Shown here one piece after another: positions 51,344 to 63,796 of a stretch of 64,000 nt of DNA. The notes under the pieces were generated by a model, which made no database searches, was not told the origin of the DNA, and worked only from the letters and a program-made list of their open reading frames with translations. Each line of letters begins with the position of its first letter. The first letter of the stretch is position 1. A program made the translations under genes and the position numbers. The stretch comes from Elusimicrobiota bacterium (lineage in GTDB: Bacteria; Elusimicrobiota; Elusimicrobia; Elusimicrobiales; UBA9959), in NCBI GenBank assembly GCA_003450815.1, contig DMES01000078.1, positions 175 to 64,174 on the forward strand. Reading direction: 5' to 3'.

Positions 51344-52465
51344 ATGGCGGAGACATTGGAGTTTAAAGACGCGGGTAATAAGCTTGAGCGGCTTGAAGCC
51401 GCGCTTTCCGCTTCGTCGGCGCTTTTCGGCCTGGCGGCTAAAAAAACGGATTTAAAAGAGAAAGAGGCCGTTTCGCTTGAGGCCGGATTCTGGGATAAGG
51501 CGGAACAGGCCCAGGTGCATCTAAAAGAATTGAACGATTTAAAAAAGGGCGTTGAACTGGTGGATAAACTGGGGCGCGAGCTGGAGGACTGCCGGGCGCA
51601 CCTGGAGCTTGCCAGGGAAAGCGGCGACCTGGGCGAGCTGCCGCTTATAATGGAGGCGCTAAAGTCCGCCGAACAGAAGCTAAGCGCTTTTGATTTTGAA
51701 CTTAAACTTTCCGGTCCCCACGACAAAGCCAGCGCCATTATAAGCATACACTCGGGCGCCGGCGGCACCGAGGCCTGCGACTGGGCGCAGATGCTGCTTC
51801 GCATGTACACGCGCTGGGCGCAAAGCAAAGGTTTTTCTTTCAGCATCACGGACATTCTGCAGGGCGAGGAAGCCGGCGTAAAAAGTGTTACCGCTTTTGT
51901 GAACGGCAAATACGCTTATGGGTACCTTAGGAGCGAAATAGGCGTGCACCGCCTGGTGCGCATCTCGCCTTTTGACGCCAATAAGCGCCGCCATACCTCG
52001 TTCGCCTCGGTTGACGTGCTAGCGGATATTGATGAGGAGATAGATATTAAAATAGACGAAAAAGACCTGCATACCGACACCTACCGCTCAGGCGGGGCGG
52101 GCGGCCAGAACGTGAACAAGGTGGAAACCGCGGTGCGCATAACGCATATCCCCTCCGGCATAGTGGTGCAGTGCCAGATAGAGCGCAGCCAGCATCAGAA
52201 CCGCGAAACCGCCATGAAGATGCTGAAAGCCAAACTTTACGAAGTTGAAATGGACAAAAAACGCTCAGAAATGGAGCGCCACTACGACGCCAAAGGCGAC
52301 ATCGGCTGGGGCCATCAGATACGCTCCTACGTGTTCATGCCCTACCAGATGGTAAAAGACCTGCGCACCGATCACGAGACTTCACAGATCCAGAATGTAA
52401 TGGACGGCGACCTGGACTCTTTCATGCACTCCTACCTAACCTGGTCCGCCGGTGGGAAAAAATAA
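51344..52465 (+). CDS. prfB: peptide chain release factor 2 (uninterrupted frame, no programmed +1 frameshift)
   Basis: SPF tripeptide (RISPFD) and GGQ ([11 protein letters not shown]). 373 aa, continuous from the ATG at 51344. Confidence 0.93.
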
Positions 52466-52884: not shown

Positions 52885-54408
52885 ATGAGACCTATCCGCA
52901 TATTCATAAGCAGTGCGCAAAAGGAATTTGCAACTGAACGGGCCGCGTTGCGCGATTATCTGCGCGGCGATGCCCTTATGCGCCGGTTTTTTGAACCGTT
53001 TTTGTTTGAGGATGTCCCCGCTGCCGATCGCAGGGTGGACAAAGTCTACCTGCATGAAGTGGAACAGTGCGACATCTACCTCGGCTTATTCGGCAACGAG
53101 TACGGGTTTGAGGACGCCGACGGCCTTTCACCAACAGAGCGCGAATTTAATACCGCCTCCGGGCTGCATAAGGCGCGGCTAATCTTTGTAAAAGGGGCGG
53201 AGGATGGAGCCAAACATCCAAAGATGCAGGCACTCATCCTCCGAGCCGGGTCGGAACTCATTCGGCGCCGGTTTGGAACGAGCGCGGAACTGCTCACTGA
53301 CGTTTATTCCGCGCTGGTGCAGGTGCTTGAAGACCGGGAACTGATCCGTACCGGGCCGTTCGATGCTGCTCTTTGTCCCGGGGCTGCGCTGGAGGATCTG
53401 GATGAAGGAAAAATGCGGCGGTTCATTCTTGATGCCCGCCGTGCCAGAGGCCTCCCGCTGAGCGAGGAGGCCTCTCCAAAAGATATTCTGACCCACTTAA
53501 ACCTTCTTGATAATGGTGGGGTGGTGAACGCCGCCGTGCTATTGTTCGCGCGGCAGCCGCAACGGTTTCTGGTCTCCTCGGAAGTGAAGTGCGCACATTT
53601 CCACGGCATTGAGGCAACAAAACCGATACCTTCCTATCAGACATACAAAGGTACGGTATTTGATTTAGTGGACCATGCGGTGGATTTCGTCTTATCGAAG
53701 ATCAATCTTGCCGTTGGCACGAGGGCGAACAGTTCGCAGGCGCCTGTTGCATATGAGATACCCCCGGAAGTTGTTCGCGAAGCTGTCGTTAATGCCGTGG
53801 CGCACCGGGATTACACCAGCAACGGCAGTGTCCAGATTATGCTCTTTTCCGACCGGCTGGAGGTCTGGAATCCGGGCACTCTGCCGCCTTCGCTTACGCT
53901 GAAGAAACTGCGTCACCCGCATGGCTCGGTGCCATGGAATCCCCTGCTGGCTGAACCGCTTTACCTCACGAAATACATAGAACGTATGGGCACCGGCACG
54001 GGGGATATGATCATGCGCTGCCGGAATGCGGGTCTTGCCGAGCCGGAGTTTGGCCTGACCGACGGCTTTGTAGTCACCATCCGCCGCAAGCCGGAGCAGG
54101 CATTTGAGGCGGTTGGGGGAGAGAAGAGTCAATCCAGGGGCAAGTCACAGCCAGAGTCACAGCCAGAGTCACAGCCAGAGTCCTTGGAAATTCGGATTTT
54201 GCGCCAGCTTGCGGCAGCTCCTTTAGGAAAGGCTGAGTTGTCTGCACGCCTCGGCCAAAAGGAAATTTCAGGCCAGTTAAACAAGGTTATTCGCGTTCTC
54301 CTGGGTGATCAAACCATCGAAATGACCACCCCCGACAAGCCCAATAGCCGTCTGCAGCAGTACCGACTCACCGAGACAGGCCGCGCCTTGCTCACAAGGA
54401 AGAACTGA
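52885..54408 (+). CDS. DUF4062-like N-domain fused to a COG2865-type (RecG-like HATPase_c_4) region and C-terminal winged-helix
   Basis: The N-terminus IRIFISSAQKEFATERAALRDYL fits the DUF4062 pattern. The central AVLLFARQPQRF...VVREAVVNAVAHRDYTSNGSVQIMLFSDRLEVWNPGTL fits the COG2865 core. An SQPE x3 linker precedes a wHTH-like tail. Confidence 0.7.
   Translation: MRPIRIFISSAQKEFATERAALRDYLRGDALMRRFFEPFLFEDVPAADRRVDKVYLHEVEQCDIYLGLFGNEYGFEDADGLSPTEREFNTASGLHKARLIFVKGAEDGAKHPKMQALILRAGSELIRRRFGTSAELLTDVYSALVQVLEDRELIRTGPFDAALCPGAALEDLDEGKMRRFILDARRARGLPLSEEASPKDILTHLNLLDNGGVVNAAVLLFARQPQRFLVSSEVKCAHFHGIEATKPIPSYQTYKGTVFDLVDHAVDFVLSKINLAVGTRANSSQAPVAYEIPPEVVREAVVNAVAHRDYTSNGSVQIMLFSDRLEVWNPGTLPPSLTLKKLRHPHGSVPWNPLLAEPLYLTKYIERMGTGTGDMIMRCRNAGLAEPEFGLTDGFVVTIRRKPEQAFEAVGGEKSQSRGKSQPESQPESQPESLEIRILRQLAAAPLGKAELSARLGQKEISGQLNKVIRVLLGDQTIEMTTPDKPNSRLQQYRLTETGRALLTRKN
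54145..54180 (+). repeat. perfect 12-bp x3 tandem repeat (TCACAGCCAGAG) encoding SQPESQPESQPE
   Basis: Read directly. It forms the linker between the HATPase_c_4-like region and the C-terminal wHTH. Confidence 0.95.
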
Positions 54409-55913: not shown

Positions 55914-56654
55914 ATGAAAGAAGGCGATAACAATGTCGAGTTTAGGCCCGTGTGTAAGGATACTCCGGAAGAATTTACTGATTTTTTAGCGAATTTAAAG
56001 GACCCGACGGAGCCGGAAAAGCATAATAGCGCCTGGACAAGGTTGTGGACTCAGATTAAGATATGGGCTAACGGGTGTATTAGAAAAGTCTTTGGGGCCA
56101 CTGAGGAAGATGCTGAGGATTTAACCAGTAAGGTGATGAGTACTGTTTTTGCAAAAATATATGAGTTTGAAATTCAGGACAAAAAGCACTGTGCACTGCA
56201 ATTTTGCGGGTATATTAATAGATTCGTTATAAATATTTGGATGAAGATTAAAGGTAGCAAGTTTACCAAAAGAAAATTGAAAGGGTCGGATAAAGAAAAC
56301 GCAGCGGAGGAAGGTGGGATAAGGAGAGAGGCAGCGGAAGAACAGTATCAACGCGACGTTGAGGTTTTAGATGATAAAGGTGATAAATCGGACCCGGCTG
56401 CTATTTTGTATAGCACAAGGAAGATTCAATCGGGTTTTTACTATTTGGATTTATTCGCTAAGCAGAGCGCCGTAAAAGCTTGGGTCCTAAGGAAGGCGGC
56501 ATTTTTGATAATAACGGATCCGGAATTTACACTTAGCCGGGATGTTAAACGGCGGTTGTCGGTTAGCCGTGAAACGCTGTGGCGCGATTGTAAGGAGTTT
56601 GCTGAATTTGTACGGAACCAACCCGGAAGTAAGGAAGAGGGGCTTTATGACTGA
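55914..56654 (+). CDS. sigma-70 family (ECF-like) sigma factor candidate
   Basis: Region-2-like segment AWTRLWTQIKIWANGCIRKVFGATEEDAEDLTSKVMSTVFAKIYEF...YINRFVINIWM. Region-4-like HTH tail RRLSVSRETLWRDCKEFAEFV. Motif-level recognition only. Confidence 0.55.
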   Translation: MKEGDNNVEFRPVCKDTPEEFTDFLANLKDPTEPEKHNSAWTRLWTQIKIWANGCIRKVFGATEEDAEDLTSKVMSTVFAKIYEFEIQDKKHCALQFCGYINRFVINIWMKIKGSKFTKRKLKGSDKENAAEEGGIRREAAEEQYQRDVEVLDDKGDKSDPAAILYSTRKIQSGFYYLDLFAKQSAVKAWVLRKAAFLIITDPEFTLSRDVKRRLSVSRETLWRDCKEFAEFVRNQPGSKEEGLYD

Positions 56655-57195
56655 GGATAATGAGAAAAAAGAGTTTTATCAACGACTGATTGATATCGTA
56701 GGTGAGCGGGAGGTTGGGATAATTTTACCTTCTCATAAGGTGGGGAAATGCGATGAAGGCCTGATAATCAGCTATCTCTCAGGCGGGATGCCGCCGGCAA
56801 AAATGAAAGTTGCAGAGGAAAAGATATTCTCCTGCAGCAAATGTACCCTGCTTGCCATAGAATTAGCAAGGGCGACGGAAGGCATAAAAGATGATTGCCC
56901 CCAGGGAACAAAACTGGATCATGAGGGGTTCGTGCGCTGGCGTGAGCGTTTTGAGAAAGAGCATTTATATACAGTAAATAAAAAATATGGAAAGACAGAC
57001 CTAAAGTTTACCGCAAATGGGTGGGATGCGAGGATTGATAACGCTAAAGAAGACTTTCGGGTTAGGGTCGGTAAAAAAACATACGCGCCTACTAATGACG
57101 GGATTATTACCTACCCGGATACTCCGGATGCCGTGCTTGAATCTGCAGATGGGCCGACCGTTAATATACATGAATTCTCTGGGGGGCGTAAATGA
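56647..57195 (+). CDS. hypothetical cytoplasmic Cys-containing protein, anti-sigma-like by position
   Basis: Overlaps the sigma-like ORF by 8 nt and the STAND gene by 4 nt. Cys cluster C-x27-C-x2-C (GKCDEG...FSCSKC) sits where zf-HC2 anti-sigma proteins carry theirs, but the canonical His is absent. No TM helix. Confidence 0.4.
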   Translation: MTEDNEKKEFYQRLIDIVGEREVGIILPSHKVGKCDEGLIISYLSGGMPPAKMKVAEEKIFSCSKCTLLAIELARATEGIKDDCPQGTKLDHEGFVRWRERFEKEHLYTVNKKYGKTDLKFTANGWDARIDNAKEDFRVRVGKKTYAPTNDGIITYPDTPDAVLESADGPTVNIHEFSGGRK

Positions 57196-59549
57196 TTCAA
57201 CGTATTGAACAGGAAATGGAAAAACTTTTGCTGGAGAAGCACGGCCTTGATTATCTTCTTAATAATGCCGCTGATGATATTGTTGCCAAGATAAAAAATA
57301 TGGAGAGTGGGGTGTTTTTAGTGGAGGGCTTGCCTGGCATAGGGAAGAGTGCCAGCATGAAGTATATTGCAAATGCCGTTGGCGCGCATAACCCAGAAAG
57401 AGTTGTTCATTTTTACTTCAGCTTGAATAATCCTGTTTTAGATAATGCGGATAATTATTATGAATACACCTGTGATAAAATCAGGATAATAATGGGAGTT
57501 GCAGATCCTGCCGTTCCACAAATTCAAACTTCAAGAAGGGAGAGGAAAGATTATAACGATTTCCAGCAATCCGTATTGGATTTGTCCTCCGCAATAGGCA
57601 AAGATGACGAGAAAAAAGTTTATTTTTTCATTGATGGTATAGAGGAGATGCGTGATTATAAAGAATTCCTTAGCTATATTCTTCCGGCTGAAGGTGTTAT
57701 CTATGTAATTTTTGCGCAACCAGGCGTTTGTAACGGAAGTTTGCCGGTAAATTTCCTTGAACACGGAAAAATAAAAAATCGGGTTGAAGTAAAATATCTC
57801 AATAAAACACACGCCAGGGAATTTTTCTGGAAAGTGTTTGGGAAAGCCCCAGATGCTGAATTTGATGTTTTTGAGTCTAAGGTGCGAGCGCATTTTGATA
57901 GTTATATTGAAACCGAGGAAAACCGTTGCCCATTATTGCTTAAGATTTTAGCCGAGGACGCAAAGGAGGATGGATTTAATCTAGATAGGGCTTGGGCTAT
58001 TGGGTTAGAAGGATATTTGGATGGGCGAGTTAAACTTTTTTCTGAGAATGCAAAAAAGCTTTTGGTTTTAGTGGCGCTAGCCAAAGGCCCGCTGCAGAGC
58101 GAAGACCTTGTTGAAATGACGGGTTTAAGCCGGGCGGTTTGCGATGGGGCACTTAACGAGGCGAAGAAATTTTTAATAATTAACGGCCAAGGTATTGTTA
58201 TATCCCATAATGTGTGGGCAAAATTAATTTCTGATAGATGGGGTGACAAGTCAAGTTATGAAGTGTATTTAACTTGGTGCGCCAATTGGAGCAACCCTTC
58301 CCTGCGCCAGGAAACAGCGGTATATATAGCTCGGCACTATGTGTTTCATGTCCTGGACTTTTCCGACAGATGGTCTGATGGCTCTGGAAGAGCAGAGGAA
58401 TTATTGCTTGAACTGTATAAGGACTCTGCTGATGAATATGTGGGCTTTCAGCTAAACACTTTATTCCCATTAGGTGAATCTTTGACTGATATTAGTCGCA
58501 TAGCTAAAAAAGCTTTTGTGAGAGTTTCCTCATCGCAAAAATTCAAACCGGAACTTGTGGTTACTTTGGTAGCGGTAATATGTCAGATAGAGGGATCAAA
58601 ACGTGCAGATTTTACAAGGGAGTATTTAAGCGCTGCGAACCGGAAGGGTATTGACAGTGAAATCGATAAAGGCATAATTCGTGAGGTAGCAACTTCTGTT
58701 TTAGCCATGATTGGATGCGATGAGGCCGGGCTCGTATGGGGATTGCTACCGATTGAGACGGGGGTGGATAAGAAATGGGATGATTCTCAGGCTCTATGTT
58801 ATCTGGTCTCAGAAAAGATCTTTAGAGAGATGCCTTCTGAAGAAAATAAGTTGCTAATATTTGATACTTTCTTGCAAAACACGAGGAGATGTTTAGAAGG
58901 TGACGCGGTGCGTTTAAAATCAGCTACGTGGCCTGAGAATGTTAAACTTGTTTACCAAGGTCTGCGTGTCTGGTTGAATATCTATGCAGCTTTTCAGCCG
59001 TGGTTGAAATTACCACATGATTCTAGAAATCCTAAGGTAAAAGTCTTAGCAAAGCATGGGGCTCAGTATGAACAAGGTATTCTGTTATGGGTAAATGCAC
59101 TTTTTAGATGTGCGAAACAAATATCTAAAGAAAAAAGCGGGATTTCTGGGGTGGAGCGTGAAATGCTTAATAGAATTCAGCGTGCAGGAATTCTTGCCCA
59201 ACTTAAAATAAAGCCAGTCATATGGAATATGGGGCCTAAAGGCGCAACCTGCAGAGCAGATGAGATTGTGTCTTTATCATGTATTATAATTTGTGAACAA
59301 GATGTTGTTGCAAGGCGTGCTGCTGCTGAGGGGTTGATTGAAATTGGTGATTCTACGGCTTGTGAGGCTTTGATTTATGGACTAAAGAATGATACAGATG
59401 TCCAAGTTCGCGCCCGATCCGCCACAGCTTTAGGTAAAATTGGTGATCCCTGTGCGCAAGAGCCGCTGATTGAAGCTATAAATGATGAATTTGAAGAGGT
59501 TCGAGTGGCTGTTAAAACGGCCCTTGAAAAACTCAGGCCTGCTAAATAG
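57192..59549 (+). CDS. STAND (NACHT-like) P-loop NTPase with C-terminal HEAT (PBS-lyase type) repeats, no N-terminal effector domain
   Basis: Walker A GLPGIGKSA at about aa 47. Walker B VYFFIDGIEEM. Long helical middle region. C-terminal repeats AAEGLIEIGDSTACEALIYGLKNDTDVQVRARSATALGKIGDPCAQEPLIEAINDEFEEVRVAV. Confidence 0.75.
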   Translation: MIQRIEQEMEKLLLEKHGLDYLLNNAADDIVAKIKNMESGVFLVEGLPGIGKSASMKYIANAVGAHNPERVVHFYFSLNNPVLDNADNYYEYTCDKIRIIMGVADPAVPQIQTSRRERKDYNDFQQSVLDLSSAIGKDDEKKVYFFIDGIEEMRDYKEFLSYILPAEGVIYVIFAQPGVCNGSLPVNFLEHGKIKNRVEVKYLNKTHAREFFWKVFGKAPDAEFDVFESKVRAHFDSYIETEENRCPLLLKILAEDAKEDGFNLDRAWAIGLEGYLDGRVKLFSENAKKLLVLVALAKGPLQSEDLVEMTGLSRAVCDGALNEAKKFLIINGQGIVISHNVWAKLISDRWGDKSSYEVYLTWCANWSNPSLRQETAVYIARHYVFHVLDFSDRWSDGSGRAEELLLELYKDSADEYVGFQLNTLFPLGESLTDISRIAKKAFVRVSSSQKFKPELVVTLVAVICQIEGSKRADFTREYLSAANRKGIDSEIDKGIIREVATSVLAMIGCDEAGLVWGLLPIETGVDKKWDDSQALCYLVSEKIFREMPSEENKLLIFDTFLQNTRRCLEGDAVRLKSATWPENVKLVYQGLRVWLNIYAAFQPWLKLPHDSRNPKVKVLAKHGAQYEQGILLWVNALFRCAKQISKEKSGISGVEREMLNRIQRAGILAQLKIKPVIWNMGPKGATCRADEIVSLSCIIICEQDVVARRAAAEGLIEIGDSTACEALIYGLKNDTDVQVRARSATALGKIGDPCAQEPLIEAINDEFEEVRVAVKTALEKLRPAK

Positions 59550-59642
59550 ACGGTTGCTGTAGATTATAGTCGCTTTTTAGACTATGATTCCCCAACATCC
59601 CCTCCTAAACGAACCATAAAAAACTAATAGCTGGAGTAACTT

Positions 59643-59685
59643 CCCCAGGCAGCAGTAAAATGCTGCCTGGGGCTGCTTTGTTTTG
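59643..59685 (+). terminator. rho-independent terminator after the STAND operon
   Basis: CCCCAGGCAGCA-gtaaaa-TGCTGCCTGGGG followed by CTGCTTTGTTTT. Confidence 0.85.
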
Positions 59686-59805
59686 GCATTAAGTTTCCGA
59701 AGAACCCATATAGACAAATAATTGGACAAAACACCCTGCAACAAAATAGCGTTAACCGGGAATATACAGGTAGAAGGGTAACGCTGAGAGGGTCTGGGGG
59801 ATGGT

Positions 59806-59977
59806 ACAAACTGGAAGCCGGCGACATATAGTGATAGGCAATTAAAACTTACGGAGGAATATATGAACACAAAACACCTTACAGTAGACACAAGCAATGC
59901 GGCCTGGGAGATTTTCGGGTTTGACCGGGAAATGCGGGGAAGTGAGCATCGCGTTACGGATAGCCAGCGCTCAAAAA
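59806..59977 (+). repeat. copy 1 of a ~170-bp tandem duplication (leader + first ~38 codons of the NYN gene)
   Basis: Aligns with 60073-60245 at a 267-268 nt offset, with by-eye identity of roughly 80%. The first 26 nt (ACAAACTGGAAGCCGGCGACATATAG) are identical. Confidence 0.85.
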
Positions 59978-60585
59978 CCACAGTCTGCCTTCAACGCGAG
60001 GCTATTGAACGCTGCGGAAGCTGCGGCGCGCCTGCCATACAGGGGGCGGGGTTCTGTTATTCGTGTCTTGCAACAAACTGGAAGCCGGCGACATATAGCG
60101 AGAGGCAGCAAAAACTTACTGAGGAATATATGAACATAAAATACCTTATAGTGGATGGAAGCAATGCGGCCAGGGAAATTTTTGGGTTTGGCCGGGATAT
60201 CTGGGGGAATGAGCGCCGCGTTCTGGATAACCAGCACTCAAAAAGCCTGCTTTCCGTGCTTGCCGCGTTTCCCAAGAGGCTCGGTATACCTGAAATTAAG
60301 GTGTATTTTGACGGAACCGTGCGGCCGCATGAAATATGCCCGCGAAACCTGCCCATGAGCGTACGCCTGGAATTCGGTGCCGGAACTGCCGCGGATGAAC
60401 TTATAGTACGCGAGGCCGGCGCTCTGGTCAATAGCGCCGGAGGGATAGCCGTTGTAACTAATGATCGCGATCTGGGAAACCGGGTTAAAGGGTTGGGGGT
60501 ATTCAAGGTTCTTCCGGTGTGGTCACTGAAAGCAATGGCCCAGGATGCCGGTCTGAATACGGATTTGTATTTCCACTCGGCCTAA
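59863..60585 (+). CDS. NYN/PIN-like (YacP/Rae1-like) ribonuclease domain protein with duplicated N-terminal segment
   Basis: The second copy MNIKYLIVDGSNAAREIF...ADELIVREAG...IAVVTNDRDLGNRV fits the NYN YacP pattern. An internal ATG at 60130 has its own RBS and would give a 151-aa canonical protein. The upstream 89 aa are a degenerate copy plus a Cys-rich linker (CGSCGAP...CYSC). Confidence 0.65.
   Translation: MNTKHLTVDTSNAAWEIFGFDREMRGSEHRVTDSQRSKTTVCLQREAIERCGSCGAPAIQGAGFCYSCLATNWKPATYSERQQKLTEEYMNIKYLIVDGSNAAREIFGFGRDIWGNERRVLDNQHSKSLLSVLAAFPKRLGIPEIKVYFDGTVRPHEICPRNLPMSVRLEFGAGTAADELIVREAGALVNSAGGIAVVTNDRDLGNRVKGLGVFKVLPVWSLKAMAQDAGLNTDLYFHSA
60073..60245 (+). repeat. copy 2 of the tandem duplication
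   Basis: See 59806-59977. Confidence 0.85.
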
Positions 60586-60652
60586 TGTGCGGGTTCTGTG
60601 CCAACGGAAGCGGAGTAAAACGACCTTCAGTCAAAACTTAGTAAGAGGACTT

Positions 60653-62284
60653 ATGATAAAAATAAAAAACAATAATGATTATCTCGCAAACCTTACCCGC
60701 ATTCTTTGCAACCCTGATTTCCACCGGGCTCTTCCCGATAAGTCTCCGGCGCCATTGCTTAAGGCGCCGACAAGGCTTAGGTCTGTTGCTTCGGCTGTTG
60801 ACTCTAAAGCCGTCTGCGCCAAAACTCTTGCGGAATTGCGCGAGCTTTTTGCCGCCGGTCAAAAGGGAGTTAAGCGCGGGCTTAAAATACCTTTTACCAA
60901 AATTTGCGTGCAGAAACGGTTTGATGAAATAGAGTCCGCGGCCTTCGCGCTCTTTGCGGTGGCTGAAATTTCCGGTCGGGATCAGTTTGAAATCTTCCGC
61001 GGGGCGGAAAACATCTTTAAATCCCTGGCTGGCCTGTTCGGCATGGAAAAGGTAAGGCTGGCCCCTTATTTTCTGTCTTCCGGCAAACTCAGGAAATCCG
61101 GCGTGTTTTCGTGTGGACATTACATGCAGGACGACGCCTTCCGTCTGCCGTCTAACTTAAGGGAGAAAATTATTGAAAAACTGCTTACCGGAGATAAGAA
61201 ATCCCTCAAGAAGAAAAATAAGGTTGTGAAAATACTCCGGCCCGGCAGCATTTCAGAGAGGCTCGGTTTAAACGTAATAGCGCAGGAGGCCGCCAAAAGA
61301 CAGCTCTCAACCGTGGCTTTTCAGCATTTGCAGCGCGCTAAAACACCGGTTAAATCAGGGTTGGCCGCGCCGCGCCTGAATACGCTGCTTATCGGGCCTA
61401 CCGGCTGTGGAAAAACTTATATAACCAAATGCCTGGCGGAAATACTGGGTGTGCCCGTTGCCTTTTGCGACGCCACACAGTACACTGAAACCGGCTATGC
61501 GGGCGCCTGTGTGGAAGATATGCTGGTGCAGCTTCAAACGTCCGCCGGAGACAACCCCAAAGCCGCGGAATACGGGATAATTTTTATAGATGAAATAGAC
61601 AAGATACGCGCGGAAAGTGTGGGTCAGTCACATAACAGTAACCGTGATGTAAGCGGTCTTAGCGTACAGCAGGACCTGCTTAAAATACTTGAAGGCGACA
61701 AGCTTAACTATGAGAAGTATCGTACAAGGTGTCTCAGCGAGTATAGCTTTAACGTAAAGAATGTGTTGTTTATCGCCGCGGGCGCATTCCAGGGTTTGGT
61801 TGATATCGTAAACGATCGGATTAAAACCAAAAGACAGATAGGATTTAATGACCAGGCGACCTTAACAAACGGTCAACCTGAGCAGGTTAATCTTCTGCAA
61901 CAGGTACGTCCGCAGGACATTATAAAGTACGGTTTTATGCCGGAGCTTATAGGGCGTTTCCCTAATGTAATTGCGCTTGACCGGCTTACCAGGGAAGATT
62001 TTCTGGGTATACTGGATAATCCCCGCACAAGCCTTGTGGAGTATTACCGCGATTTTTTCAATAAACATGGTGTGGAGCTGGAAATCCCGCCTGAGTTTTA
62101 TGGGGAAATTTCCGCCAATGCCATTGACCGCGACTTGGGCGCCAGGGGCCTTAACGCTGCCGTGGAAGGGTTTTTCTCAGGCCTGGTTTTTGACCTTCTG
62201 AAGTTCAAGAAAGCCGGTGAAAGACAAAAAGTCAACATAATGGACTATACTCGCGGCGGGCATCTTAAGGAACTGTTCGGGTAA
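60653..62284 (+). CDS. ClpX-like AAA+ ATPase with a novel ~240-aa N-terminal domain (no ClpX zinc-binding domain)
   Basis: Walker A GPTGCGKTY. Pore-loop-like ETGYAGACVED (ClpX has GYVGEDVE). Walker B IIFIDEIDKI. LLKILEG, FIAAGAF, an IGF tripeptide (RQIGFND), FMPELIGRFP and GARGL. I preferred the ATG at 60653 (AAGAGGA RBS) to the GTG at 60587. Confidence 0.8.
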   Translation: MIKIKNNNDYLANLTRILCNPDFHRALPDKSPAPLLKAPTRLRSVASAVDSKAVCAKTLAELRELFAAGQKGVKRGLKIPFTKICVQKRFDEIESAAFALFAVAEISGRDQFEIFRGAENIFKSLAGLFGMEKVRLAPYFLSSGKLRKSGVFSCGHYMQDDAFRLPSNLREKIIEKLLTGDKKSLKKKNKVVKILRPGSISERLGLNVIAQEAAKRQLSTVAFQHLQRAKTPVKSGLAAPRLNTLLIGPTGCGKTYITKCLAEILGVPVAFCDATQYTETGYAGACVEDMLVQLQTSAGDNPKAAEYGIIFIDEIDKIRAESVGQSHNSNRDVSGLSVQQDLLKILEGDKLNYEKYRTRCLSEYSFNVKNVLFIAAGAFQGLVDIVNDRIKTKRQIGFNDQATLTNGQPEQVNLLQQVRPQDIIKYGFMPELIGRFPNVIALDRLTREDFLGILDNPRTSLVEYYRDFFNKHGVELEIPPEFYGEISANAIDRDLGARGLNAAVEGFFSGLVFDLLKFKKAGERQKVNIMDYTRGGHLKELFG

Positions 62285-62379
62285 GAGCATCGGGGGCTTA
62301 TGAATGGCAGGAAAGGCAGGTAACATTTCGGCAGCTGTAGTCTTATAGTAGAGGCTGGTTAAAACATAGGAGGTTATAT

Positions 62380-62601
62380 ATGGCTGGACATAGAGCTTGG
62401 AACAGGTTTAATAACAGCGGGGTTGCCTGGAATCACTGCGGGTATGGGTTTAGGAAAGATGATAGTGAGGATAGGGAGGCATCTAAATGGGATAGAGAGC
62501 TTGCCGCCCGGACTTTGCTTAAGATAGAGGCTAGAAAGGCGGCGGTGAAATTTACCAGGGATGTTCCCATAAACACAATAGGGATATATTGGGCCAGGTA
62601 G
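62380..62601 (+). CDS. hypothetical small protein
   Basis: 73 aa. Strong RBS TAGGAGGT. Preceded by a copy of the island leader element. Confidence 0.5.
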   Translation: MAGHRAWNRFNNSGVAWNHCGYGFRKDDSEDREASKWDRELAARTLLKIEARKAAVKFTRDVPINTIGIYWAR

Positions 62602-62732
62602 TTGTAAGAACGGGAAAATTAGTTATTCTACGCTTGACCGTTCTGAGTATGGCCAAAGTCCCTGCAACAAAATGGAAGCTGTCGGGCATATGTAGGTGAG
62701 AGGCGGTAAGGTTGTGAAAATAAGGAGGCAAT

Positions 62733-62993
62733 ATGGATATTGAAGATATACTGGGCATGCCTAAACATAAGAGGTATATAAAGAATACTCGCACATCGCA
62801 TGATAGGAATGTCCGCATAGAGATCAACGGTGATGTTACAAAGGCTGAGCAGAACTTCCTTAACGGGATGTCATTTTTTATAGCAGGCACACTGAGCAAA
62901 GACGATGAAAAGTATACCCGCTATGTGTCTGAAGTAATGTCGAAGTTGCTCAAGCACTTTGTTGACAGGATGAAAAAGCCGGAGGGCAAGTAA
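62733..62993 (+). CDS. hypothetical small protein
   Basis: 86 aa. RBS AAGGAGG. Preceded by a copy of the island leader element. Confidence 0.5.
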   Translation: MDIEDILGMPKHKRYIKNTRTSHDRNVRIEINGDVTKAEQNFLNGMSFFIAGTLSKDDEKYTRYVSEVMSKLLKHFVDRMKKPEGK

Positions 62994-62996
62994 GAT

Positions 62997-63374
62997 ATGA
63001 ATGACAATATTTTTGAAGATTATTACAAGGATGCTTGCTCACCGGAAAGGAACATGGAGCCGCCCAGGGGTGAGGATAGCGTAATAACAGAGGATGCAAA
63101 GCTTATCAAGGATTCCATCAATGACTTTGTGGGCAAGATGAATAAGCTTGTAGGCACTGTGTTTGATAAAGAGAAGGCTAAGGGAACACGGGACGATTTG
63201 GTGGTAACAGTTGTGGCGGGCGGTCTGGCATTCGCCATGGCTAATGTCTACTACCTTCTCACTCGTGACATTGGAGCCAGGATGAGCAAGGAAGAATTCC
63301 AGCGGACCTTTTTTAGGATGTGCGAGAGCGCTTTTAAGAATATGGAAAAGCGTAAAGACAGCCATAATACTTAA
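62997..63374 (+). CDS. hypothetical protein with one central TM-like segment
   Basis: 125 aa. Starts 3 nt after the previous stop. Hydrophobic stretch VVTVVAGGLAFAMANVYYLL. Confidence 0.45.
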   Translation: MNDNIFEDYYKDACSPERNMEPPRGEDSVITEDAKLIKDSINDFVGKMNKLVGTVFDKEKAKGTRDDLVVTVVAGGLAFAMANVYYLLTRDIGARMSKEEFQRTFFRMCESAFKNMEKRKDSHNT

Positions 63375-63433
63375 GGTAGCTGTTCCCGCGCCAAACAATC
63401 GGAGAGAAAACAGAACCAGAGTAGGGAGGAAAT

Positions 63434-63796
63434 ATGTTTTTCCCAATATTACTTGGTGTCATACTAGCGTACTTCTTCTTCAAGGCGCTATTCGTATTTC
63501 CGTTGTGGCTTAACAGGAATCTCTTTAGCAAGATATGGCACGAAGAGAAGCCAGTGGTTGACAAGGAAACTATAAAGCGCATCAAAGAACTCTGTGTTGA
63601 TGACGAGGTGTCCGAGGAGACCGCCGTGCTTATGACCGCCCGGGAGACTGGCGAGAGCGAACAGAATATTTATGCGGCCTTTGATGTAAGCGATGCCAGG
63701 GAACTTGTGTCGCTTTTGGCGGGTAAGAAGCCCGGGCTGTTTCAGATAATTAACAAGGCGATAAGCAAGTTGCCCAAGAAAGGGATGGGGGGATAA
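63434..63796 (+). CDS. hypothetical protein with N-terminal TM helix
   Basis: 120 aa. RBS GGGAGGA. N-terminus MFFPILLGVILAYFFFKALFVFPLW. Confidence 0.45.
   Translation: MFFPILLGVILAYFFFKALFVFPLWLNRNLFSKIWHEEKPVVDKETIKRIKELCVDDEVSEETAVLMTARETGESEQNIYAAFDVSDARELVSLLAGKKPGLFQIINKAISKLPKKGMGG

Follow-up and report, generated by a model that had tools for sequence, protein, structure and literature searches.

The locus considered here raises the question of whether the gene of a small NYN-type nuclease and the gene of a ClpX-like unfoldase lying behind it constitute a functional pair, in which the cleavage of RNA is coupled to the degradation of protein, or are neighbours by location only. The two genes lie towards the 3' end of a 64,000-nucleotide (nt) stretch of contig DMES01000078.1 from an Elusimicrobiota bacterium, and this whole stretch is called the window in the following. 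A preliminary description of the window, made from the letters alone, had suggested a proteolysis-gated toxin or an abortive-infection-type module. We find that the ClpX-like protein, called ClpXL below, is by its sequence a non-housekeeping ClpX paralog and that it is the conserved element, with its upstream partner being exchangeable and the NYN nuclease being one of several. The pair is real but lineage-restricted, and from the contexts sampled it does not appear to be a two-gene system of general occurrence. The two proteins are members of known superfamilies, and the ClpX paralog is the more solid and the more interesting half. The reading that we prefer, tentatively and at somewhat less than an even chance, is that of a proteolysis-coupled RNase module, in which ClpXL would work on the cell's ClpP with the NYN nuclease as its lineage-specific partner.

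The assignment of ClpXL to the ClpX type is based on its AAA+ core. Against the solved ClpX structures the protein gives an expectation value (E) of 3e-61 over residues 195-518, with ~37-41% identity, and all seven motifs that had been listed before for this protein of 543 amino acids (aa) are found in the stated order (Table 1). The segment QIGFND, which had been matched to the ClpP-docking loop, proves to be correctly matched, with QIGF falling on the GIGF of E. coli ClpX and the LGF of chain 8yd0; over 23 sequences the G and F of this position are invariant and the I is nearly so. The IGF tripeptide, Walker A and B, RDVSG and GARG are kept in 21 of 21 aligned ClpXL paralogs, down to ~35% identity. 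By these motifs ClpXL is a complete motor of the ClpX type, with all the elements of a hexameric translocase. By contrast, the replacement of the pore-1 motif GYVG by GYAG, noted earlier, is true of the window protein and not of the family, GYVG being present in every aligned relative. A change that the earlier list did not contain concerns the axial loop: ClpXL is without the RKH loop, and the loop at this place is three residues shorter and carries a conserved YEK instead. The start of ClpXL is supported by the orthologs, which begin with the same residues.

The part preceding the AAA+ module had been described as an unrecognised domain of about 240 aa that replaces the zinc-binding N-domain of ClpX. 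The replacement itself is upheld: the N-terminus of ClpXL does not align with the zinc-binding domain, and zf-C4_ClpX (PF06689), which the canonical ClpX matches carry, finds no match in the window ClpXL or in paralogs P0012-P0042. The size has to be reduced to about 195 aa because the ClpX homology begins near residue 195, and the domain is in part recognisable, PF22977 ('Winged helix domain, variant') being matched by 8 of the 17 aligned family N-domains (best E 1.8e-7) and also by more distant full-length relatives (P0046 at full length, 3e-9). The window's own N-domain has no Pfam match; it probably belongs to PF22977, by transitive homology only, as a rare and divergent domain of the winged-helix type that stands before AAA ATPases. 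Its AlphaFold (AF2) model, made with the 17-sequence alignment, is helical with a small hairpin, at a predicted local distance difference test (pLDDT) score of 78.6. A Foldseek comparison of the domain, which the preliminary description had proposed, returned nothing from PDB and BFVD at E < 0.8. A search of 1.8 billion representative proteins with the N-domain gave 6 matches, and the only match to Pch2_N was a non-significant one from a single family N-domain (E 0.079). In a tblastn comparison of ClpXL with phage genomes only the AAA+ core was matched, at no more than 41% identity, and the N-domain never; against PADLOC there were P-loop-level matches only (IetA and DolB, E 4e-4 or weaker, ~40 residues). 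In the distant ClpX-like protein P0040 (544 aa) a CsgG-like segment is found in the N-terminal region (PF03783, E 2e-8).

The first gene of the pair had been identified as a YacP/Rae1-like NYN protein with the motifs IVDGSN and VVTNDRDL, and this identification stands, with both motifs present. The acidic residues expected of the active site, D9 (in IVDGSN), D61 (YFDG), D89 (AADEL) and D112 (VTNDRD), are invariant in 11 sequences; in the structural model they are positioned after beta1, beta2 and beta4 and at a helix start, as read from the model itself. This model has a pLDDT of 88.6, and its top three PDB matches are the B. subtilis Rae1/YacP entries 5mq9 and 5mq8 (probability 1.0, template modelling score 0.64-0.69, E 5e-6 to 4.5e-5, 21-24% identity), followed by the PIN domains of 5'-nucleases (FEN-type). 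With the Pfam profile NYN_YacP (PF05991) the window protein scores 19.8 bits, under the cut-off of 24.6, while 10 of the 11 family members match the profile at E < 0.1 (best 1.3e-8) and the members P0004, P0010 and P0136 carry a precomputed match. On sequence and model together, the product is predicted to be a bona fide Rae1-like NYN nuclease with an intact acidic site. What does not stand is the extent of the gene. All 11 homologs, taken from a database of 5.8 billion clusters, are 149-152 aa long and align from an internal Met, and the true start is therefore 60130 and not 59863. The family is very small, with 12 proteins in all. A scan of metagenome contigs with the NYN alignment yielded two loci, one of them already known; nothing related to NYN was present in a viral contig collection, and PADLOC-DB 2.0 has no match for the NYN protein. 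The C-terminal tail LYF[HQ]xA is conserved, is of low confidence in the model and may serve as a recognition tag; as evidence this candidate is not specific, since the tail is kept also in the clade of NYN proteins that is linked to a RuvB paralog (see below).

The 240-aa open reading frame that had been taken for the NYN gene is explained by a 172-nt direct repeat. The two copies show 14 non-synonymous and 5 synonymous codon differences, and copy 1 breaks the family-invariant residues G10, R15 and N34, which indicates that it is decaying. The repeat is present in three independent assemblies of the groundwater metagenome (ENA ERZ909578, where the window belongs to a contig of 86.5 kb, JGI and Logan), among which the window sequence from 59000 to 63000 has zero differences. 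The mini zinc ribbon enclosed between the copies is homologous to a separate 60-aa gene 5' of NYN in locus L005 (E 2e-8) and is similar in pattern to a 52-aa gene directly 5' of ClpXL in L010. It can also be aligned on the profile of the ClpX zinc-binding domain (rCxxCG...aIxGxGxxCxxC) with an hhalign probability of 30%, and 2 of 150 Cys-preserving shuffles score as well against that profile. The ribbon might thus be a split-off relative of the very domain that ClpXL lacks, which we regard as a lead and not as a finding; its occurrence in L005, where no ClpX-like gene is present, weighs against this idea.

Within the repeat, which is otherwise 84% identical, a 26-nt block is perfectly identical in both copies. 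The pattern GGAAG-N7-11-ATATAG occurs in the 64 kb at these two places only (0.09 expected), and related GGAAG...ATATAG motifs, often in tandem, lie 5' of the NYN genes in L001 (7700-7830) and L005 (5618-5710). The block is a candidate regulatory site, which could be a promoter, an operator or a recombination site. As a sigma-70 or sigma-54 promoter it was rejected on inspection, the spacings not fitting. In the window copies of the repeat and motif region, Rfam recognised no RNA family and folding predicted nothing stable.

Table 1. Features of the nuclease and ClpX-paralog locus, with positions in the window and, for motifs, in the ClpXL protein
Feature	Window position	Strand	ClpXL residues	Remarks
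ClpX paralog ClpXL	60653-62284	+		543 aa; ATG preceded by AAGAGGA
N-domain of ClpXL	60653-61237	+	1-195	replaces C4 zinc-binding domain of ClpX
ClpX-type AAA+ module	61238-62284	+		ClpX structure and profile matches
Walker A, GPTGCGKT	61394-61417	+	248-255	
Pore-1, GYAG	61493-61504	+	281-284	
Walker B, IFIDEIDK	61580-61603	+	310-317	
Arginine-finger region, RDVSG	61640-61657	+		
Altered axial loop with YEK	61694-61750	+		
FIAAGAF		+	373-379	
IGF loop, QIGFND	61835-61852	+	395-400	
FMPELIGRFP		+	428-437	
Sensor 2, GARGL	62138-62152	+	496-500	
NYN (YacP/Rae1-like) endoribonuclease gene	60130-60585	+		151 aa; from homolog lengths, fold and motifs
In-frame extension of the NYN reading frame	59863-60129	+		89 codons; pseudo-N-terminus of NYN and mini zinc ribbon, within the 240-aa open reading frame 59863-60585
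Direct repeat, copy 1	59806-59977	+		57 nt of upstream sequence including the ribosome-binding site, and decayed NYN codons 1-38 (MNTKHLTVDTSN...)
Direct repeat, copy 2	60073-60244	+		5' region of the real NYN gene; 172 nt, 84% identical to copy 1, spacing 267 nt
26-nt block	59806-59831 and 60073-60098	+		ACAAACTGGAAGCCGGCGACATATAG; perfect identity
Mini zinc ribbon	60013-60066	+		CGSCGAPAIQGAGFCYSC; CxxC...CxxC, between the repeat copies
STAND-HEAT NTPase gene	57192-59549	+		upstream of the NYN and ClpX-paralog pair
Intrinsic terminator hairpin	59643-59672	+		closes the STAND cassette; 12-bp stem with 9 G-C pairs, then T tract CTGCTTTGTT

The neighbourhoods in other genomes show how far the pairing extends. 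The sample is small: besides the window, contexts were obtained for nine contigs with ClpXL and five with NYN, from a ClpXL family of ~30 members and an NYN family of 12. The tree of the close ClpXL family splits into two clades. In clade A a 331-aa HTH_11-WYL-WCX regulator stands directly 5' of ClpXL on the same strand in 5 of the 5 lineages examined, often with DUF2779 further up. In clade B (P0012-P0015), which comprises the window protein, P0013, P0014 and P0015, the WYL gene is lost, and the upstream slot is occupied by NYN in the window, by the NYN protein P0004 with an FtsA/MreB-like gene between for P0013, and by the 52-aa zinc ribbon, behind a STAND cassette, for P0015 (L010). The gene 3' of ClpXL differs in every lineage. 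Moreover, a backbone of the form DUF2779-WYL-(X)-HEAT is syntenic in L001, L006, L008 and L095 whether ClpXL is present or absent; comparing L008 (5286-11168) with L001 (882-5949), we see that X is the ClpX paralog in the former and an unrelated 207-aa gene in the latter. In L001 an NYN operon lies ~2 kb from this backbone on the other strand.

The NYN family also splits into two clades. Clade 1, consisting of the window protein, P0002, P0004 and P0010, is linked to ClpXL in every context available, two of them confirmed and a third (P0002) likely; counted from the ClpXL side, NYN adjacency amounts to two confirmed and one likely of ~10 contigs. In clade 2 the NYN gene stands, in 3 of 3 contexts, at the head of another conserved operon, with a CsgG/LpoB-like lipoprotein and a RuvB paralog, the latter scoring 241 bits against a cut-off of 282. 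In both clades the NYN gene therefore leads an operon that includes a paralog of a housekeeping AAA+ protein, either ClpX-like or RuvB-like. As to ClpXL in particular, the link is suggestive and consists so far of gene neighbourhoods in a few related contigs. It is noted that the clade 2 operons (L001 8001-12528, L005 5955-10672 and L013 71-3375) also encode several orphan proteins, that a 439-aa CsgG protein is present near ClpXL in the contig of P0019, and that a CsgG/LpoB-like theme recurs around both AAA+ paralogs to which NYN genes are linked. The earlier expectation that the two genes would be neighbours elsewhere is accordingly borne out by half, holding for the available contexts of NYN clade 1 and failing for the clade A ClpXL genes and for the RuvB-linked NYN genes.

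In the window itself the two genes directly follow the terminator of the STAND cassette on the same strand, as had been described, and this terminator marks the start of a separate transcription unit; an equivalent hairpin is found downstream of the STAND gene in L010. Between NYN and ClpXL there is a gap of 67 nt and no terminator, and a common transcript is likely as judged from this arrangement. The GC content at third codon positions (GC3) of NYN, ClpXL and the small downstream genes is 0.51-0.61, which is host-like, as compared with 0.24-0.45 for the block from p70 through the STAND gene, and L010 shows the same contrast, its cassette being clearly lower than its ClpXL. We infer that NYN and ClpXL are transcribed together as a unit whose composition is host-like, within an island that is variable and of the defence type. 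The low-GC cassette (55914-59549) consists of three genes, encoding a 246-aa protein (p246), a 182-aa protein (p182) and an NPHP3_N-type STAND NTPase with HEAT repeats; with p246-like and p182-like genes it is shared with L010 (1604-7369), lying directly 5' of the ClpX paralog both times with a terminator between, and it has the look of a unit acquired on its own that turns up repeatedly at this location. Pfam and PDB gave no support for reading p246 as a sigma factor of the extracytoplasmic-function type and p182 as its anti-sigma factor, and this idea was dropped.

From the identity of the genes, their conserved motifs and folds, their neighbourhoods and their composition, we propose the following working of the module, in which docking on ClpP, co-transcription, a physical or regulatory link of the two proteins and a role in defence are inferred. 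ClpXL hexamers would dock on the cell's ordinary ClpP and would feed it with a limited range of proteins, selected through the new N-domain and the axial YEK loops. The gene directly 5' of ClpXL would be its lineage-specific partner or controller, this being a WYL-type transcription regulator in clade A and, in the clade of the window, the NYN RNase, the mini zinc ribbon or both. In the latter clade the harmful part would probably fall to the NYN RNase, through cleavage of mRNA that may, as with Rae1, take place on the ribosome, and ClpXL together with ClpP would set the level of the RNase or of an inhibitor. Proteolysis-gated toxicity of the pair, as deduced from the sequences, is plausible. 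The best argument available for the first of these steps is that the IGF tripeptide is conserved at ~35% family identity, which argues that the contact with ClpP is still under selection.

Several observations weigh against this proposal. Confirmed adjacency is limited to a small number of metagenome contigs that are closely related to one another. No NYN gene is next to ClpXL in the five clade A lineages examined; in clade B, the slot upstream of P0014 holds a 147-aa gene that is not among the NYN matches, and the ClpXL of L010, 66% identical to that of the window, has no NYN there. In the contig of P0002 a gene of at least 539 aa begins 64 nt after NYN and is not in the cluster of P0013. Half of the NYN contexts hold the RuvB paralog instead of ClpXL, and most ClpXL lineages are without NYN. 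Neither the window nor any ClpXL locus contains clpP or a second clpX, and the presence of an IGF tripeptide does not by itself prove that ClpP is bound. For neither gene was a match to a PADLOC or PHROG model obtained, and both the toxicity of the RNase and its being a substrate of ClpXL are putative.

Other explanations may be considered for ClpXL itself. That it is the organism's housekeeping ClpX would agree with its best database and structure matches, which are to ClpX, and with the fact that no other clpX lies within the 64-kb window. Nevertheless, we judge this to be very unlikely and indeed hardly credible, because the protein falls below both NCBIfam ClpX equivalog cut-offs (NF003745 and TIGR00382, with 299.5 bits vs 359 and 266.8 vs 370.75, respectively), has neither the zinc-binding domain nor the RKH loop, is only ~40% identical to ClpX of any phylum, belongs to a rare family that resides in variable islands behind WYL regulators, and is missing from the syntenic backbone in L001. 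A different possibility is that ClpXL is a ClpP-independent ATPase for remodelling or segregation, its winged-helix N-domain targeting DNA-bound or nucleoprotein complexes and its IGF loop being an ancestral relic. ClpX alone is known to act on MuA transpososomes, and such a role would be in keeping with the winged-helix-type N-domain in relatives, with the recurrent DNA-related neighbours (DnaB_C-like proteins, DUF2779 and the RuvB paralog in the sister NYN operon) and with the lack of clpP nearby. It is hard to reconcile with the strict conservation of IGF across a family diverged to such an extent. Note also that in a control set clpP was present within the 8-kb flanks of only 32 of 80 canonical clpX loci, so that its absence near ClpXL says little; these 80 loci came from a genome contig scan with the ClpXL family alignment, which returned canonical clpX in every case, the FIDEIDK pattern being universal to ClpX. 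On balance we regard an activity without ClpP as improbable.

As to the pair, the main rival to the proteolysis-coupled module is that the two genes are neighbours by location only. ClpXL would then be an accessory, stress- or infection-inducible unfoldase at the edge of an integration hotspot, under WYL control in most lineages, and NYN with the mini zinc ribbon would be an independent RNase cassette, with no mutual action of the two. We consider this unlikely, yet as an explanation to be taken seriously. It accounts readily for the variation of the 3' gene between lineages and of the 5' gene within clade B, for the synteny of the DUF2779-WYL-(X)-HEAT backbone with or without ClpXL, for the presence of NYN and a zinc-ribbon gene in L005 in the absence of any ClpX-like gene, and for the location of the L001 NYN operon close to the same DUF2779-WYL backbone. 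What it does not account for is that each NYN clade keeps its own AAA+ partner, which random insertion would not give, and that NYN and ClpXL share their composition and are tightly spaced on the same strand. It could also be supposed that ClpXL belongs to the STAND cassette, with the STAND protein sensing a trigger, ClpXL and ClpP providing the output or reset, and NYN being an add-on. Supposition of this kind draws on the occurrence of the same three-gene cassette directly 5' of ClpXL in the window and in L010 and on the HEAT-repeat proteins recurring beside ClpXL or its backbone (L008, L001); the strong terminator in the window and the hairpin in L010, which separate the cassette from the ClpXL unit, the lower GC3 of the cassette in both genomes, as expected of a separate insertion, and five other ClpXL lineages without a STAND neighbour leave it with a small probability. 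A broader generalisation of the proteolysis-coupled module, which we consider distinctly doubtful, would be a hitherto unrecognised class of conflict or stress modules, each combining a Rae1-like, possibly ribosome-dependent RNase with a dedicated paralog of a housekeeping AAA+ machine, namely a ClpP-docking ClpX paralog in one clade and a RuvB paralog in the other. Here the lost zinc-binding domain may survive as the free-standing mini zinc ribbon, directed proteolysis through the unfoldase would act as the gate on the RNase, and WYL or STAND proteins would provide the trigger.

The surroundings of the pair are a defence-island setting. In the window the island is variable and of ~12 kb, lying between prfB (51344-52465) and tatD/metH, just past the window end, and none of its proteins has a match in PHROGs. 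Elsewhere, the defence-type neighbours of ClpXL include a CBASS pair, STAND NTPases, MoxR/VWA genes, dynamin-like GTPases, genes resembling toxin-antitoxin systems and Schlafen/AlbA-like regulators, and the NYN locus L001, which shares the DUF2779-WYL backbone, contains a type I restriction-modification system. The CBASS-like pair, which consists of a DncV-like nucleotidyltransferase and a SAVED-HNH effector, lies with an SNF2/NOV_C helicase in L095 (865-3214) beside a DUF2779-HAD-WYL-ClpXL block and supports the defence-island setting for the ClpX paralog. At the left edge of the window's island, beside prfB, a 507-aa protein (52885-54408) combines DUF4062, HATPase_c_4 (Schlafen/AlbA_2-type) and a Fic-like C-terminal helix-turn-helix with a SQPESQPESQPES repeat; it has partial PADLOC matches to Argonaute-associated SIR2-PNTD proteins (E 3e-14). 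On the 3' side of ClpXL there are five small orphan genes of 73, 86, 125, 120 and 173 aa (62380-63796 and, in L012, 13146-13667, which corresponds to window ~63798-64319). Several of their products are membrane-like by inspection, and the last one (173 aa) carries a CxxC...CxxC ribbon; no homolog of the five was found in the related loci and no Pfam match above threshold. An antisense open reading frame (60638-61120) was rejected as a gene because its conservation in L010 is explained by its overlap with the ClpXL coding sequence.

ClpX is normally a single, universal gene, and its choice of substrates is made through the zinc-binding domain and the RKH loops. A family of ClpX paralogs that keeps the ClpP-docking loop, with both of these specificity elements swapped, would thus be a natural experiment in the re-targeting of ClpXP, and would also be a candidate for inducible, substrate-specific degradation under WYL control. 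If it is true that a Rae1-like RNase is coupled to ClpXL, the toxin would be gated by an unfoldase of its own and not by the general proteases. The ClpXL family is tiny and is found only in uncultured Elusimicrobiota-like bacteria. The statement made before that no named system has an NYN and a ClpX-like protein as a pair agrees with PADLOC, which contains no matching model, and searches of the literature available gave nothing relevant on a ClpX paralog family with WYL or NYN, or on PF22977.

Finally, we compare the two proteins with systems that are known. With ClpX (E. coli, PDB 6wr2 and 3hws), ClpXL has in common the single AAA+ module with a small C-terminal domain, Walker A and B, a pore-1 loop of the GYVG type, the RDVSG region, sensor 2 (GARGL) and IGF at the aligned position. 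ClpX differs in having the C4 zinc-binding N-domain, where ClpXL has a helical domain of ~195 aa and winged-helix type, and in having the RKH loop, where ClpXL has the shorter YEK loop, with ClpXL remaining under the equivalog cut-offs. Moreover, ClpXL is not next to clpP or lon; it is located in variable islands behind a WYL regulator, an NYN gene or a mini zinc-ribbon gene. The ribosome-dependent NYN endoribonuclease Rae1/YacP of B. subtilis (5mq8 and 5mq9) is the best structural match of the window NYN protein and is of similarly small size, whereas the window protein belongs to a separate family of 12 proteins, is itself below the Pfam threshold, has the tail LYF[HQ]xA and stands at the head of an operon with an AAA+ paralog.

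At the level of whole systems, WYL proteins regulate a number of defence or stress operons, such as CapW in CBASS, BrxR in BREX, PafBC of the mycobacterial proteasome locus, and DriD. The 331-aa regulator that precedes the clade A ClpXL has the same architecture, and PafBC likewise stands beside a component of protein degradation; the differences are that no WYL gene is present in the window and that what is controlled is a ClpX paralog instead of an established defence system. In toxin-antitoxin or abortive-infection modules with RNase toxins of the PIN/NYN type, for example VapBC, control is exerted through Lon or ClpXP, that is, through a general protease, and the partner is a small antitoxin. 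The likeness lies in a small PIN-like RNase beside a proteolysis-related gene in a defence island, while the partner in the window is a dedicated unfoldase and no candidate antitoxin gene is seen other than, perhaps, the mini zinc ribbon. In type III CBASS, the AAA+ remodeller TRIP13/Pch2, acting with HORMA proteins, regulates an immune effector. The idea shared with the window locus is that of an AAA+ unfoldase set aside for switching an immune module off or on; TRIP13, however, does not resemble ClpX and is without a ClpP-docking loop, and the window locus lacks a HORMA protein.

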